A stretch of 64,000 nt of DNA from an uncultured Nitrospiraceae bacterium. Its GTDB lineage: Bacteria > Nitrospirota > Nitrospiria > Nitrospirales > Nitrospiraceae. The position numbers were made by a program. Below are positions 3,501-30,500 of the stretch, in pieces. The first letter of the stretch is position 1. The number at the start of each line of letters is the position of its first letter. Location of the stretch: assembly GCA_963846575.1 (NCBI GenBank), contig CAWJWJ010000002.1:2080001-2144000 (forward strand), read 5' to 3'.

Positions 3501-6500
3501 GGGGTATGATCTCCTCTCTTCTGCACGAAGAATAGAATCCACGCCCGAGAAATATCGTACGACAGCCCCGAACCACGGACTGCGGATATGGCTTGCGGAG
3601 AGGTGGCCGAGTGGCCGAAGGCACCGGTTTGCTAAACCGGCACAGGTCAAAAGCTTGTCGCGGGTTCAAATCCCGCCCTCTCCGCCATGCCAACTCAGAA
3701 GAGTTGATTTTTTTTCGATGATCCTGTAGACAGAAGCCCCTCTCGGAAATCCTGCCAGAATGCCGAGGTAGCTCAGTTGGTAGAGCACAGCCCTGAAAAG
3801 GCTGGTGTCGACAGTTCGATTCTGTCCCTCGGCACCACAAATCGCGCACTTAGAGATTGTTCTACGTAGGATGGTGGCACCTCAGTGGCAGTAAGTGGCA
3901 CCTCAGAGGCATTTACACCATGGAGGAGAGCATCACTGAACGACTCCAACCGAGTGACCGCATCGCGCAATCGACCGTCCCAATTGTGAATGTGATACTT
4001 CGCTGAACCAGGAAGCGGCTCGCCTTTGAGGGTCTGAATCACAGCATAGTCCACACCACATTGCATCAGCCAGGTGGCGAAGGTGTGTCGCAGATCGTGG
4101 AAGTGCAGATCATAAATCCCGGCTCGCTCACATGTTTTCATCCAACTATGCTTGAAGGAATTCCCATTCTTCCATTGTCCAAAGAATCGCCCGCCAATCC
4201 GTGATAGTCCTCCGAACAGCGCTTCGTAAGCCAAGCCATTAAGAGGAATCGTTTTAGGAACCCCCTTGATCTTCGTGCGGCCCGGCGCCGGCGCCATCCA
4301 CCACCCGTCTCCCCTCTGCATCAGCCATTCTTCATGAGTCTCAATGAGCTTGTTCTCGCGCAAACCAATTTGGAGCGCCGCCATGATGAGACGCCATACT
4401 TGTGGCGAGGCAGCGGCCCTAAGTTTCAATAGTTCCCATCCTTCCAGCACGCGCTCACGTTTCACGTACTCAGGCACCGGAAGCCGCTTGAGCCGATTCT
4501 TATCCAGCCGATCCATGTCCACAGCCAGATTGAGCACGGCCATTAATACCGCACATTCCCGCTCGATCGTTCCAGCCGCGACCGGTCGACGGTTATCTGC
4601 CGGACCCGTAAGATCCGCACGACGTTTTTCCAAATAGGTCAATCCGTCCTCAAGGCGAATCTCAGTAAGTATTTTCTGTCCGAAATAGGGAATGATGTGC
4701 TTCGTCAGAATGAGCTCATTTCGACCGTCATTTGTTGGCCGCTTCGCTTTTAAATACTGCAGGTAGATTGGAATGAAAGCCGAAAAGGTGATGTCCGGCT
4801 GGTCAGCGAAGTGAGTCGTTTGAGTGGGTAAATGTACCGGTTGCGCCGTGTTGGCGTGTATAGCGGTGATGATTTGAAGGGCAGCTTCCCGTTCCTGGTC
4901 AATGGAAAGGTTGTATCCAAGGACAGGCCTATAACGAGCACCACGATACCAATATGTGAGAACCGAACGAGTCTTCCCGGAGGTTAGGATGCGCCGAATG
5001 TTCATGGCGTTACCTATGACGAGACAGTATAAAAAGTGGATTCCGATGGTAAACGTTGGCTGGACCGACGTCAACTGGCGCAGGAGACAGATCCCCGTGC
5101 CTGTTGCTGTTCACCTCCTGTCCCTCGGAGCGCATTCGAACCCACTTTTCCAAGTCTTCCTTCACGAACATCAGACGATGTCCATAGCGAACACGGGGAA
5201 TGTCAACACGTTGGTACAGTGTTCGTTTTGTGAGCCGCAAGAACTGAGCAGCTTCTTCGATGGTAAGAAGCGTCATACCTTCTCCTATCTACGCAGACAA
5301 TGAAGCCGAAGCATATTGGCTCTCAACTGGTCTGATTCAACCGGAAGTCTATCGACATCCATTCCCCCCCATTGAAGCGCCCGCCGTTACGCCAGCTTGG
5401 GACGAAGATCGAGCCCCCATCGGGTGCGACCCGTGGCCGGCGGAGCAGGGGGTCAGGCCTTCCCGTCTGTTCGTCCAGGCCTGCCCGCTGCGAGAGCCTC
5501 GTGCCGCCTCCTTCGTTACGCCCCACCCTTGGATTGTGAAGGGTGGGGCTAGAACATAATTTCAGAAGGAGGCGGACATGTCCGTTGATAGTTCTCTCGG
5601 TTCCTCGAACGCTGGACGGCCACTGAGCCCGACAGCCCGCTACGGCGTGCCTCGGTACCGTGTCACGCTTGTGCGCGAGGGCTGTGCCATTCCCGCGACG
5701 GAGTCCCTCACGACGTCGGAGGGCGCCGCGCAGCTCCTGTGTCCCCTGTTCGCCGGATTGGACCGGGAGCAGTTCCTGGTCTGCGGCCTCGACGCCAAAC
5801 ATCGACTCATTGGGATCAATGTCGTCTCCACGGGCTCGCTCACCTTGGCCATTGTCCACCCTCGTGAAGTCTTCAAACCGCTGATCCTGATGAATGCCGG
5901 GGCCTGGATTTGTGCGCACAACCACCCCTCTGGCGACATCACGCCCAGTCCCGGAAGATCGCGTCCTGACCACACGGCTGCGCGAAGCAGCTGATCTGTT
6001 CGGCATTCCGCTGCTGGACCATCTCATCTTCGCTGACGACCGCTACTACAGCTTCGCCGACCAGGGCTGGCCCGGCGCCTAGCGGAGCAGCCGCAACACC
6101 CAGGCCGCTCCGGCGGCTACCAATGCGAGACCGATCGCCGCCGTGCCCCAGGCGACCAGGTCGGTGGCCAACGCGTTCCCGATGTTTTGAATCTGTTGCG
6201 CCGTCATCCGTGCACTCCTTTGTCCGTGCCATTCTCATCCTGCCCTGTGCTGAGAAAAGGAGGCAGGCTGCTGCCAGCCTGCCTCGATGGGCTTTCCTAG
6301 CCCACAATCGCGCGCACGCGCTTAAAGGCGTAAATCGCCAATGCCACGCCGATCAGGGCCGTGGCCCACAGGAGCAGATCGGCCCGCACGGTGGCCACAT
6401 CCGCCGACACCGGAAACAACTGCGCCTGCGACAGCGCCGGGACGCCCAGGGCGAACACGAACGCCATGAGCAATCCCCCAAGCCCTTTGACCCAACCCCA

Positions 6501-27500: not shown

Positions 27501-30500
27501 ATAAACTAACTCCATCCGTTGTCATTATGGACATCAATATGCCCAAGCTCAATGGGATCGAGGCGACGGCACAGATCAAGTCTCAATTCCCGCACATTGC
27601 GGTGATTGGGTTATCCGTCAATGCAGAGGGCCCGAACCAAACGGCAATGCTGCAGGCTGGCGCCACCCGGCTGATAACTAAAGAGGCCGCTGTGGAGGAG
27701 CTGTATCGCGCCATTCAAGCTTCCATCGCAGCAACAGAATCTCAGTGAGGAATACCAGTCAGCAGGTACGTTCTTGCCACGCCACCTCGAACCTCGGCAA
27801 ACGAGGATTTGCGCGTGTAGGTGATTGTGCATTGAATATTGGCCCGGCATTGTTTTGTTTAGTTAACACGTTGAGCTTGGTGTTGATAGTTTTGTGGTAC
27901 CGGGAAGGATGTTTACCCTCGAAGGGCCTCGACCTTTCTATTTGGGATCACTCGATTCCTCCAAATCACGTTCAGTGACAAAACAAGATGGTAAATGCAG
28001 GTTGGCGAGCGCGCCCACCTCGGCGCGCGGCGATGCGAAAGCATTGATGATGGTCGCTGCATTCCACGCACGCGTTTTGAGGGAGATATGGTGACACTGG
28101 TTGTCCGGTGAAGACCAGCCGACATGCAAGTCACTATCTCCGTAAGCACCGTGATCGTCGATCAGCTTTGACCGACAGCGGGCTGATCGTCATGTAGAAG
28201 AGCGGGTCGATCATGACACTCTCGGGATTGGTTTAGGTGTCTATACCGCCGCCTGGCTAGGGCTCCCTGAGCGTAATGTCTGCTAACGCGCGTGGGGATT
28301 TTCTATCCCCCTCCGTATCGGTGTGGAGAAGATGATTGCCGGTGGTTGCAACGTAGATTTGAGTCTGTCGAGTAGGATCGTAGCCGCCGAGCACAAGGTT
28401 GATTGTGATCGGTTGTGTAGCGGCGACGCCGGTGCCACGAGGACGAGCGTCGTGAGACTTTTGGTACGAACCTGGATAGCTCTTCCGACAGAGTTGTCTC
28501 GAAGGAGGCCAATGTCAGTCCGATGATCACTCACAACCGGACGCGATGGAAGTGAGAGCGGGATGTAATTCCTTAGCAGTAAAGGGAGTCTGCTTCACGC
28601 TCGCGTCGGCAATTTGATCAGGTCGAGACGAGGGTGGTTCGGTTTTGCACGATGTGCCTCGTGACCCTATCCGGAAAAGTTCGCTCGGCCAGCCGCAACT
28701 CATAGGCTTTCTGCAAGTTCATCCAAAATTCAGCCGTGGTATTGAAAACCCAGCCCAGACGCAGGGCCGTATTGCCCGTAGTGCCCCGTTGCCGCTTAAT
28801 AATTGCCGTAATCGGGTTTGCCGGCACCTCTAATGACTTAGCGAGTGTATTGGCGTTGATAGGAAGATTAGCCGCCTTCATGAACTCTTCCCCCAAAATT
28901 TCTCCGGAATGCACCGGCCGCATGCCATTCTCCCTTCACCGATGGAAACCGACTTGAAGTTAGGTGCCACCAGTGGCACCTGCACCTGTAACCCTATGTA
29001 GTTTAAAGGCACACAATGTCATGATTTGCAACGCCGTTTCCCGCTATCATATTGATTTTCCACTGCTTTAGGCTCCCCTGAAAAGGCTGGTGTCGACAGT
29101 TCGATTCTGTCCCTCGGCACCACAAATCAACCGCCTACGTGAAGCGCCATTTTCCCACTGCCCATAGCTGTCCACGCTGGCCGATTCTTGGCTTTCAGCT
29201 TGCAGAACCTTCTCAAGTAGGAATGCTTCCAACCGTATCGCCGCATCGCGCAGGCGAGCCTGCCAGTTGTGAAGGTCGCCCTCCCCCATTCCATGCAAAC
29301 GATGGCCAAGTAGTTTCTCGATGACGGCGAAATCCGCACCGGCTTCAAGTAGCCAAGAGGCCGCGCTATGACGAAGGTCATGGAAGGTCAGGTCATGAGC
29401 GCCCGCAGGCCGACAGAGTGACATCTCCCTCGAACACGATGGCAGTGAGAACCTGGAATATGCTGCCGGCTTTGGCGATCCTTCGTGGCGGTATCGTGAG
29501 AGATGTTCGCCCGTCTTCTCACAGCGCTGTCCCTCGCAACCCTGGCAGTGGTTTTCAAGCGCCTTGTGATACGTAAACCTCCATCGTACCCGTACCGCAA
29601 AGCTGAATCTGAATGGCCTAGCCGAAGCTATCGCGAGCGTTCCTAGAGTCTCGAGCGGTACGCCGACAAGCCTGCTCTGACGTGTCTATGGTGCTGACCT
29701 GAAGTTTCGAAAATGTTTGACGGGCCTGCGGTTGGGTCCAGGATTCGGTTCCGGCCGTAATCCACGCTTCGTCTTCCGTGCCTGATATTCTAACTCTCAT
29801 ACACTTATGGACAGCTTTTTGGTTTAGCCGCGCATGGTTCATTTAGGACCGGCTCGCCATCAACTTGATTTCAGTAGCGCTCCATCCGACAGTCGCATGA
29901 TATGTCCAACGAAACAGTGACCGTCTACAGGCAGTATTTGAGGTCGTTTTCAAACACGGTTATCCGGTCAGGCGCGTCTCCGAAGCGAGCATGATCCTCG
30001 CCGCATTGGAGCAGAGGCTCCTGGCCCGAGTCATCGGATCGGGCGTGATCAGTAGCCGGACGAGGACGCCGTAGGTGAAGGTGGCGGTTTCGACGAGTGA
30101 CTTCTTCGAAAAATAAAAAATGGGAGACCAATTGGGAGAGCGACGAGAAAGGAGTAAAAACAGCCGAACGTGAATCCGACCAACGCAAACTTGTCAAAAT
30201 GACCTTCCTTTAATTAAACAAAGGCCTGAAACATAAGGTTGGAAGCTACAGCCGCTCCAAGGCTTGCTCGAATATAGGCCGTGCACCACCAATGAAAGGC
30301 AAGAGCTGTCGCTACAGTAATGCCGAGTTGTATGGCTAGTCCCGCCCACGCCCCAGTTGTACTTGGGTCTTGCAGAACATTATGGTGAACCTGGACAACC
30401 TTTACATGTGGTGTGTGCGTTTCAGAATGCGTCCGTGATTCCACATTCTTGAGAGGTGTCATCCTTAAAGTAGTTACTAATCCTAACTTCAGGATTGTCT

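Follow-up and report, generated by a model that had tools for sequence, protein, structure and literature searches.

The window, by which we mean the entire 64-kb stretch of DNA analysed, contains, in a nitrite-oxidising Nitrospira, a 25.3-kb element (3791-29128) that begins and ends with identical 53-bp copies of the tRNA-Phe 3' end. Read from its left attachment site (attL), the element consists of an integrase, an excisionase, a 5.5-kb inovirus backbone, cargo and a right attachment arm. The integration target is tRNA-Phe(GAA) (3762..3837, + strand; ARAGORN; Rfam tRNA 72.8 bits). The attL core (3791..3843), made up of 3' tRNA sequence and a further 6 nt, recurs as a direct repeat in the attR core (29076..29128; 53/53 identical), as already reported in the survey's finding, and the 24-nt tRNA-Phe end occurs at only 2 places in the window versus 0.00 expected by chance.

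Integration module and attachment arms

The element encodes a tyrosine integrase of 433 aa (3773..5074, - strand; PF00589 3.6e-11; phrog_1 8e-34), the final codons of which run antisense into tRNA-Phe, and an excisionase-like HTH_17 protein of 88 aa (5010..5276, - strand; PF12728 1.5e-9; phrog_66). The integrase shares 91% and 82% aa identity with those of elements G004b and G020b, respectively, both of which adjoin the same phage family. The 9-mer GTGGCACCT matches the window 4 times (0.62 expected), twice per arm and always within ~115 nt of the att cores, an arrangement kept in G004b and G020b. Motif counts place two direct copies in the left arm (3874..3903, + strand), which are candidate arm-type Int/Xis sites, and an inverted pair at 28962-28981 in the right arm, whose extent (28932..29075) was additionally defined by homology. 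Across approximately 190 bp, att included, the right arm is conserved (77-90%) in no other elements than G004b and G020b, which share its integrase type; the arm is cognate to that type. The right end also encodes a HigA-family HTH protein of 101 aa (28618..28923, - strand; TIGR02607 79 bits vs 47.7 cut-off), with counterparts (77-83% nt) in four Lys-type elements that adjoin attR in G004a, G016a and G006c and, in G018a, lie 2.6 kb past the attR mapped there.

Inovirus backbone and co-resident copies

Homology between family members starts sharply, in 23 elements representing 12 integration types, at a non-coding leader (5343..5577) with a nested hairpin (~5500-5580; RNAalifold -58.65 kcal/mol), which covers the RadC ribosome-binding site, matched no family in an Rfam search and shows zero covariation because its sequence is invariant. 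It is followed by a RadC-like JAB gene (5578..6082, + strand; PF04002 9.5e-23), here split by a 1-nt insertion into two pieces that match phrog_10276. Encoded on the - strand are three small membrane proteins: a coat-like protein of 42 aa (6079..6207; 93-100% conserved, 33 elements; no HMM match), a candidate major coat protein of 70 aa (6297..6509; 88.6-100% conserved, 32 elements; no HMM match), proposed from its signal peptide, acidic N-terminus, membrane helix and basic C-terminus, and a 34-aa protein (6601..6705; 85-100% conserved, 24 elements). Furthermore, this strand encodes an intact Zot/pI morphogenesis ATPase of 351 aa (6686..7741; PF05707 1.3e-29; phrog_197 1.5e-46), a pVI/Ace-like minor coat protein of 123 aa (7770..8141; phrog_306 5.9e-9; DUF2523 0.0011, below the Pfam cut-off) and a pIII-like adsorption protein with signal peptide, Thr-rich linker and C-terminal anchor (8042..9308). 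The latter is interrupted by a 1-nt insertion near 8627; its pieces are co-linear in a single frame in relatives, forming one ORF of ~422 aa. The remaining - strand genes encode a ssDNA-binding protein of 87 aa (9400..9663), whose AlphaFold model (pLDDT 91.8) has an OB fold with bacterial and mitochondrial SSB and PriB as best Foldseek matches (prob 1.00), an intact Rep_trans rolling-circle initiator of 330 aa (9864..10856; PF02486 3.3e-38) and a variable HTH regulator of 95 aa (10853..11140; HTH_17 5.2e-5, below cut-off). The regulator, a candidate immunity determinant, shares 46-76% aa between elements versus 85-93% for Rep. Iteron-like repeats upstream of it (11141..11261) mark the right end of backbone homology among elements of the same regulator type. 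Pfam and PHROGs agree on the integrase, excisionase, Zot, Ace-like, Rep_trans and antisense RadC genes named by the survey.

Virion and replication genes are under strong purifying selection, with median dN/dS values of 0.089 (Zot), 0.060 (Rep), 0.052 (SSB) and 0.073 (pIII N-terminal part) at dS ~0.9, and the small virion proteins are 85-100% conserved across elements; the dN/dS of the variable regulator is 0.36.

The genome contains four backbone copies where the survey had mapped them, the other three being 87.7-89.0% identical to the tRNA-Phe copy over 4.9-5.5 kb, and the att repeats at tRNA-Arg-TCT and tRNA-Lys were likewise recovered. The serine-recombinase element at tRNA-Ala, previously described as cargo-less with 7.2 kb, has to be revised: this site is empty in two relatives, comparison with which shows a 33.3-kb insertion here, and 12 nt from the end of tRNA-Ala recur 28.3 kb downstream. 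This fourth element thus also appears to carry cargo and to span 28.3 kb. Each of the four copies has at least one broken gene. Unless the 1-nt insertions are assembly errors, the tRNA-Phe copy may be defective or depend on co-resident copies for help.

Cargo and the genus-wide family

The cargo slot of the tRNA-Phe element (11262..28617, + strand; ~17.4 kb) was annotated using Pfam and NCBIfam. Domain searches confirm the sulfur-compound genes noted by the survey, namely an MBL-rhodanese fusion (12021-13487), four YeeE/TsuA-like (Sulf_transp) ORFs (13484-15813) and DsrE (18635-19249). In addition, the slot encodes a SoxB-like protein (16556-18148; NCBIfam SoxB 279 bits, below the 550 cut-off), two DUF1264 proteins (19417-19929 and 21470-22264), an Alginate_exp porin (22302-23876) and a hybrid histidine kinase (25685-27748). 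Pfam identified no integrase, transposase or relaxase domain in this cargo, and no relaxase or type IV secretion domains were identified (Rep_trans scores 49.9 bits against MobT, cut-off 600). As a block, the cargo was found in no other Nitrospira genome searched, only the sulfur cluster having counterparts (78-88%); co-transfer was therefore observed for a sister element and not for this cargo itself.

Among 36 other Nitrospira species genomes, 18 encode the family Zot. All copies with a left flank (33/33) adjoin a tRNA gene, and 12 types of integration module and site are represented, including two serine-recombinase types. On the backbone tree (Zot+Rep), integration types show a random distribution, changing 18 times versus a shuffled mean of 19.6. 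The distal att repeat was located in 22 elements with lengths of 12.8-35.1 kb, no family member with a located far end stops directly after the phage, and 5-28 kb of cargo is the rule. The absence of an inner att, noted by the survey for this genome, extends to the family: copies with at least 3 kb beyond the regulator gene have no tRNA repeat within ~5 kb of the phage end, and no tRNA word of at least 11 nt occurs at the phage/cargo border in 23/23 tyrosine-type elements. Across the cargos scanned, no integrase or relaxase domain and a single rve transposase (in G018c) were identified. The relative in G004, reported by the survey to match only at its ends, shares 91% (integrase), 85% (Zot) and 86% (Rep) identity and 89.5% over 191 nt at the right end, with no similarity in between. 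IMG/VR contains 13 contigs (UViG fragments) of this phage family with Zot 84-88% identical; these measure 3.5-10.4 kb, many being cut at the same backbone position, none is circular, and they lack an integration module or att-to-att structure.

The sister elements G004a and G016a, from two species, differ at a single position between the first base of tRNA-Lys and a point within attR (29,257 nt, 99.98%), an identity that rests on one metagenome-assembled contig, leaving a small chance of an assembly artefact. Their left flanks are 78-83% identical and no homology exists beyond attR. This shows that backbone and cargo move together in the sister element.

Proposed mobility and packaging, and comparison with known systems

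We consider it quite likely that 3791-29128 represents one integrated inovirus of a Nitrospira-specific family, with an att-bounded genome that includes a variable cargo slot between regulator and right arm. The cargo appears to be part of the mobile unit because of the attL-to-attR identity of the sister elements, the integrase-matched right arms and the shared 9-mer in both arms of the Phe type. Together with the missing inner att and the genus-wide build, the sister identity and cognate arms support the survey's proposal that an inovirus backbone has been combined with various integration modules and that the cargo lies between the att repeats. We infer that the tRNA-Phe copy would excise, replicate as a whole circle and have its cargo packaged into filaments. 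The integrase and the HTH_17 excisionase would recombine the two 53-bp cores into a 25.3-kb circle with phage, cargo and both arms, on which Rep_trans would drive rolling-circle replication. The OB-fold SSB would coat its single strand, which Zot/pI, acting together with pVI, pIII and the small coat proteins, would extrude in a filament of proportionate length. In a newly entered cell, Int would insert the circle into tRNA-Phe.

A rather unlikely alternative is that Int/Xis move the unit but filaments hold the phage part only or nothing. The inovirus genes would then be a passenger or domesticated module, e.g., for DNA or matrix export, and the 13-35-kb unit would pass between cells by a different route, such as transformation, vesicles or another helper. 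That Zot, SSB, Rep and the receptor-binding part of pIII evolve under purifying selection instead fits ongoing infection cycles, and any Int-made circle contains the cargo because the latter separates the integrase from the right arm. No second origin-like direct repeat joins the backbone ends to free the phage alone, and the scanned cargos yielded neither conjugation genes nor genes for another capsid. Filament length, moreover, scales with genome length. The alternative draws on packaging being something we infer, on the broken genes in all four copies, on IMG/VR holding backbone-sized fragments only and on inovirus genomes being put at 5-20 kb, as far as covered in PMC6813254.

Accretion of unrelated DNA clearly happens at tRNA-Phe, since its neighbourhood is a plasticity zone (conserved chromosome returns only near window 55,230) with att-flanked islands lacking integrase and phage in G001 and G031; similar islands occupy tRNA-Ala in G001 and G007. 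Directly beyond attR, outside the element, lies a 118-aa remnant of a different, Phe2-type integrase (29068..29424, - strand; PF00589 4.4e-10), a relic of an earlier occupant, with 70% nt identity to the G009 and G035 integrases, which also accompany this phage family. Double attR copies in G021, G033 and G020c show tandem accretion, and cargo GC is host-like (0.48-0.60 vs 0.59-0.63 in the backbone). That a ~7.5-kb integrase-phage element merely sits beside an older, unrelated tRNA-Phe island after deletion of the inner att and old integrase is nevertheless improbable, as no family element ends directly after the phage, right arm and 9-mer motifs fit the integrase type, two species carry the sister composite with an identical sequence between attL and attR, and the same deletion would be demanded independently in ~20 elements of 12 integration types. 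The survey's caveat about older islands holds in part as a route of cargo gain but fails as an argument against co-mobility. For the integrated inovirus we thus favour, cargo may be acquired at the distal end, in part at least through tandem accretion at att with subsequent inner-site loss, and integration modules may be swapped between related elements. The family would represent phage-driven gene islands genus-wide, with host-useful genes in the tRNA-Phe slot.

In build, the family resembles tRNA-integrating islands of the ICESt3/CIME model, which have an integrase by the tRNA, tRNA 3'-end repeats, variable cargo and tandem arrays with extra att; here, however, the mobility module is a complete inovirus and not a conjugation or mobilisation module. 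Ralstonia inoviruses of the phiRSM type (~9 kb) integrate into tRNA genes by a small resolvase-type serine recombinase. The Ala and Glu members share serine recombinase and tRNA target but encode large enzymes (562-567 aa) in elements of 16.6-28 kb. The uncultivated inovirus contigs of IMG/VR, already catalogued automatically, have the same backbone. Like the tRNA-Phe element, CTXphi of Vibrio cholerae is an integrated inovirus with host-altering cargo, whereas the former encodes an integrase of its own, targets tRNA genes and carries tens of kb of cargo. CTXphi relies on XerCD of the host, acting at dif, and its cargo is a single small toxin operon (partly covered in PMC3545932). A large genomic island that is itself an inovirus genome was once proposed for VPIphi, the 41-kb TCP island, and withdrawn because inovirus morphogenesis genes were lacking, according to the same source; the Nitrospira family does have morphogenesis and replication genes, which are conserved and evolve under purifying selection. 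A further parallel is provided by Pf phages (7.3-13 kb, few morons), which, as far as described in PMC7549136, likewise combine a uniform structural backbone with several integrase/excisionase types, each fitting its tRNA site, can occur in several copies per genome and carry accessory genes. Compared with Pf, the Nitrospira family has 12 integration types including two with serine recombinases, elements of 12.8-35 kb and 5-28 kb of cargo. The two show no close sequence relation, the family Zot being <35% identical to anything in the phage collection. Integrase swapping is already known from Pf phages, and what is new is how large and how regular the cargo slot is.

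Boundaries and backbone of the tRNA-Phe element

The element at tRNA-Phe(GAA) (3762-3837), its integration target, is a real, well-bounded composite belonging to a regular family, and the description that suits it best is an inovirus that integrates and has a large slot for cargo. Its left attachment site attL (3791-3843), comprising the last 47 nt of the tRNA gene and 6 downstream nt, recurs as an exact repeat at attR (29076-29128), and the att-to-att length is 25.3 kb (12.8-35.1 kb across the family). No third site for the 24-nt tRNA-Phe end was found in the 64-kb window with three mismatches allowed (chance expectation 0.00). 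The tyrosine integrase gene (3773-5074, minus strand) adjoins the tRNA gene and runs antisense into it, and the 3' part of the tRNA is repeated at the far end. Intact integrases of this type (Phe1, at least 80% identity) were found beside the phage only (3/3), with fragments at four other loci. A 118-aa remnant of a different integrase lies directly outside attR (29068-29424).

The right arm, 144 bp between a HigA-family gene (28618-28923) and attR, is conserved with the same integrase type only. The three Phe1 elements have ~190 bp of right arm in common (77-90%), elements with LysB integrases share ~100 bp, and those with LysA integrases 55-845 bp. The 9-mer GTGGCACCT has four matches in the window against 0.62 expected, two on the left arm, 31-52 nt inside attL, and two in inverted orientation on the right arm, ~100 nt inside attR; this layout is identical in G004b and G020b, the other two Phe1 elements. 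These motifs are candidate arm-type sites, and the arms match the integrase type. A 39-nt right-arm string had no matches in a metagenome scan. No HigB partner precedes the HigA-family antitoxin-like gene, and excision into a circle would place this gene immediately downstream of int, on the other side of attP.

A clean empty tRNA-Phe site was not found in the five complete genomes searched because the region downstream varies in all of them. In the window, ~26 kb downstream of attR (29425-55230) have no or only short DNA matches in five complete relatives and contain unknown ORFs, hypB/E/D/F, an NHL-repeat protein and a NifU-Rieske protein. Conserved chromosome returns only near 55,230, which marks the tRNA-Phe neighbourhood as a large plasticity zone.

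The backbone continues with an HTH_17 excisionase (5010-5276, minus), a conserved non-coding leader and, on the plus strand, RadC (5578-6082). The minus strand encodes the rest: three short membrane proteins (42, 70 and 34 aa) between RadC and Zot/pI, Zot/pI (6686-7741), a pVI-like (7770-8141) and a pIII-like gene (8042-9308), an 87-aa single-stranded DNA-binding protein (SSB) with a predicted OB fold, Rep_trans (9864-10856) and an HTH regulator of 95 aa (10853-11140), which varies between elements and is preceded by iteron-like repeats. The morphogenesis ATPase pI/Zot (PF05707, 103.6 bits vs a cut-off of 20.3; phrog_197, 1.5e-46) and the rolling-circle initiator (Rep_trans PF02486, 131.7 bits vs 29.6) are well above threshold. 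The SSB has no sequence-profile match in Pfam or PHROGs and was recognized from its structure prediction (pLDDT 91.8; top Foldseek matches SSB and PriB, probability 1.00). The candidate major coat ORFs of 70 and 42 aa show the expected features, in the 70-aa ORF a signal peptide, an acidic N-terminus and a basic C-terminus, and are 88-100% conserved without a Pfam or PHROGs match. The pVI-like protein matches phrog_306 (5.9e-9) and DUF2523 under the cut-off. The pIII-like protein has the expected architecture without a profile match; it is under purifying selection in relatives and frameshifted in the window copy. GC content is 0.59-0.63 in the backbone, 0.48-0.60 in the cargo and 0.50-0.55 in the flank.

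Just upstream of RadC (5500-5580), an invariant nested hairpin, with an 11-bp stem inside a ~15-bp stem, is better conserved than the surrounding coding sequence, and the 3' arm of its outer stem contains the ribosome-binding site and start codon of RadC. It could be a translational switch, or a phage packaging or origin signal, the latter role being a guess. It shows no covariation, because the sequence is invariant, and matches no Rfam family: a search of positions 1-36000 with E up to 0.1 returned three tRNAs and one sub-threshold chance match. In both inovirus copies of genome G007, the RadC region contains a 2.2-kb group II intron encoding a 503-aa RT-maturase (L005:3126-4634 and L007:3122-4630). 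No spacer-like matches to the backbone were detected elsewhere in the window genome.

Distribution and probable modular exchange in Nitrospira

Among the 36 other Nitrospira species genomes searched, Zot was found in 18; it was found in none of 24 genomes from three other families of the order. Thirty further copies were fetched and oriented as in the window, and all 33 copies with a left flank have a tRNA gene within ~3 kb. Tyrosine integrases occur at tRNA-Phe (two types), Lys-TTT (two types), Lys-CTT, Arg-TCT, Arg-CCT, Gly-CCC and Thr-TGT, and large serine recombinases at Ala-CGC and Glu-TTC; two copies at tRNA-Ser(TGA) (G018c and G016c) lack an intact recombinase. The window also contains a tRNA-Ser(TGA) gene (526-615), followed by an Int_N fragment (1081-1614; 177-aa ORF, weak match). 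Backbone homology has a single sharp start point in all integration types and ends at ~10953, or at ~11261 where the regulator type matches. In a Zot+Rep tree of 27 elements, integration type requires 18 changes (minimum 11, shuffled mean 19.6, 30 of 200 shuffles as low), so integration modules are spread on the backbone as if at random. The tree omits the Arg and Lys copies of the window genome, in which Zot and Rep are split, and both tree and dN/dS analysis omit G016a, a duplicate of G004a. Zot is <35% identical to any phage-collection record and Rep_trans has remote matches only (<30%). IMG/VR holds 13 backbone fragments, and none of these contigs has the terminal overlap of a circular phage-only genome.

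The survey's finding of four copies of the 5.5-kb backbone in the window genome was borne out, each copy lying where it had been placed and the other three being 87.7-89.0% identical to the window copy; the distal repeats of the Arg-TCT and Lys elements were likewise recovered in place. The copy at tRNA-Ala, with a serine recombinase, had been described as a 7.2-kb phage without cargo, which is contradicted by empty sites and a distal 12-mer. At the empty tRNA-Ala sites of G031 and G004, sequence that is 33.3 kb away in the window genome starts within 200-365 bp of the tRNA. A second copy of the 12-mer from the end of tRNA-Ala lies 28.3 kb downstream, one of four occurrences in the whole 4.2-Mb genome, and in the three other Ala elements the same 12-13-mer appears again downstream. 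The tRNA-Ala element therefore appears, from these sequence comparisons, to carry cargo and to span 28.3 kb.

A 132-bp Phe1-type right arm with 18 nt of the Phe core persists as a fossil inside the Arg-TCT element G018b (oriented positions 19424-19555) and the tRNA-Ser element G016c (equivalent to window 28962-29093), which fits an exchange of integration modules between elements. Two far-end att copies in G021, G033 and G020c show tandem accretion. The tRNA-Phe sites of G001 and G031 hold att-flanked islands without integrase or phage, and the tRNA-Ala sites of G001 and G007 hold islands without the inovirus.

Cargo and its place in the mobile unit

The cargo slot of the window element follows the regulator, with ~17.4 kb on the plus strand (11262-28617). 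It encodes an MBL-rhodanese fusion, four YeeE/TsuA-like ORFs, DsrE, two DUF1264 proteins, an Alginate_exp porin, a hybrid histidine kinase and a SoxB-like protein that scores 279 bits (cut-off 550). This cargo is unique, and only its sulfur cluster has counterparts (78-88%). On the same chromosome, the sulfur cluster (12024-15788; MBL-rhodanese and YeeE/TsuA-like genes) has a 78% paralogue at C2:1309583-1313346, with ~6 kb between it and the distal end of the Arg-TCT element; the two copies differ in their ORF boundaries. A ~190-bp cargo segment (25078-25273), single-copy in the window genome, matches many Nitrospira genomes at 74-87%, at several places in each (four in G004).

Cargo elsewhere in the family includes restriction-modification systems (MmeI-, XhoI- and Eco57I-type) and other defence genes (Dcm+Vsr+Z1, ThsB-TIR, patatin-SLOG, GmrSD, Cap4 nuclease, TOTE primase-helicase), with which we list a PLD+SNF2 protein common to five elements, as well as a Tle1-like lipase. 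In the window genome, the Arg element carries copper and zinc resistance with a tyrosinase, the Lys element glycan synthesis and export, and the Ala element signalling proteins. In G006b, G030a (L028:11063-18424) and G016d (L038:11155-18663), elements of 16.6-17 kb with differing integrases, the cargo begins with, and consists almost wholly of, the gene for a 2454-2503-aa protein with SpvB, TcdB_toxin_midN, FG-GAP and RHS repeats that resembles Tc BC or Rhs polymorphic toxins. G018a and G018b have this gene in split or fragmented form.

Five lines of evidence indicate that the cargo is part of the element, one of them being the match of the right arms to the integrase type. In 22 elements the search recovered a distal att repeat; these elements measure 12.8-35.1 kb and their cargo 5.4-27.8 kb, and no element stops directly after the phage. 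Far ends are doubtful in G016c, at tRNA-Ser, with a 23-nt repeat and a cobalamin cluster, and in G007a, where the repeat of 53 nt is at 88.7%. G009 and G020a show no att repeat in 29.5 kb of sequence beyond the phage, and for nine further copies the contig ends too early. All 23 tyrosine-type elements examined lack a tRNA word of at least 11 nt in the interval that starts 300 nt ahead of the regulator gene and ends 4 kb past it. The cargos scanned contain no integrase or relaxase domains, with one rve transposase in G018c. Furthermore, the LysA elements of two species, G004 and G016, differ by one mismatch over 29,257 nt (99.98%), a span that starts at the first tRNA-Lys base, ends within attR and contains 22 kb of cargo; their left flanks are 78-83% identical and nothing aligns beyond attR. 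As sequence evidence this identity is decisive for co-mobility of cargo and backbone, and it demonstrates whole-element mobility for a sister element.

Copy-out of the phage alone between two origins found no support: direct repeats of at least 10 nt were not detected within the left (5276-5600) or right (10850-12030) boundary region, and no repeat of at least 16 nt joins the two. Classification as an integrative conjugative or mobilizable element is not supported, given the absence of relaxase, coupling-protein and type IV secretion Pfam domains from the window cargo and the other cargo proteins scanned (80 + 97), and the MobT score of Rep_trans (49.9 bits, cut-off 600).

Activity, damage and comparison with known inoviruses

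Pairwise dN/dS has a median of 0.089 in Zot, 0.060 in Rep, 0.052 in the SSB, 0.073 in the N-terminal part of pIII, 0.22 in pVI and 0.36 in the regulator (dS ~0.3-1.2), and the small proteins are 85-100% conserved. Every backbone copy in the window genome is damaged. In the Phe copy, pIII has an extra nucleotide near 8627 and RadC one near 5965, both outside homopolymer runs; the Ala copy has a 630-bp deletion in pIII and a split recombinase; Zot and Rep are split in the Arg copy; and the Lys copy, cut by the contig end, has many breaks and a Rep without its first 155 codons. Non-phage genes also look split, including DUF1207 (1647-2176), a multicopper oxidase (L091:10667-12308) and the sulfur transporters (13484-15813), which hints at assembly indel errors or widespread island decay, so the breaks seen in this genome may be assembly errors or real decay.

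It is possible, at somewhat less than an even chance in our estimate, that true filamentous virions package the whole 13-35-kb att-to-att circle and that the inovirus is the main interspecies vehicle in Nitrospira. These would then be the largest inovirus genomes known, and an inovirus, not a conjugative element, would ferry defence, Rhs/Tc-like toxin, metal-resistance and sulfur-metabolism modules between Nitrospira species. An island was wrongly equated with a filamentous phage once before, in the case of VPIphi, where the claim for a ~41-kb island was withdrawn because morphogenesis genes were lacking (PMC3545932). Packaging of the cargo would imply a wider size range for filamentous phages and a new large-fragment route by which genes move among nitrifiers that are central to wastewater and soils, and would provide a natural site-specific, large-capacity vector for organisms without genetic tools; with site-specific integration and room for at least 28 kb in the slot, the family would offer a gene-delivery vector ready for use in nitrifiers that have so far been genetically intractable. 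Inoviruses are treated as small phages (5-20 kb) with few extra genes at most; this family occurs in half of the Nitrospira species genomes searched, with up to four copies per genome, as the engine of 13-35-kb islands. Even without packaging, virus-mining pipelines that trim around pI overlook most such elements.

Our literature search found no paper on such elements in Nitrospira, or on a filamentous prophage as a genomic island with cargo. Pf phages likewise swap integrase types on one structural backbone and have co-resident copies, with five types and genomes of 7.3-13 kb described in PMC7549136, and integration genes are exchanged among inoviruses (PMC6813254). Compared with the ~5-20 kb of inovirus genomes reported in PMC6813254, the window element measures 25.3 kb and the family 12.8-35.1 kb. 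Integration of the CTXphi type, by XerCD at dif-like att sites without an integrase of the phage's own, does not fit, since the window element has its own tyrosine integrase and a tRNA attachment site.
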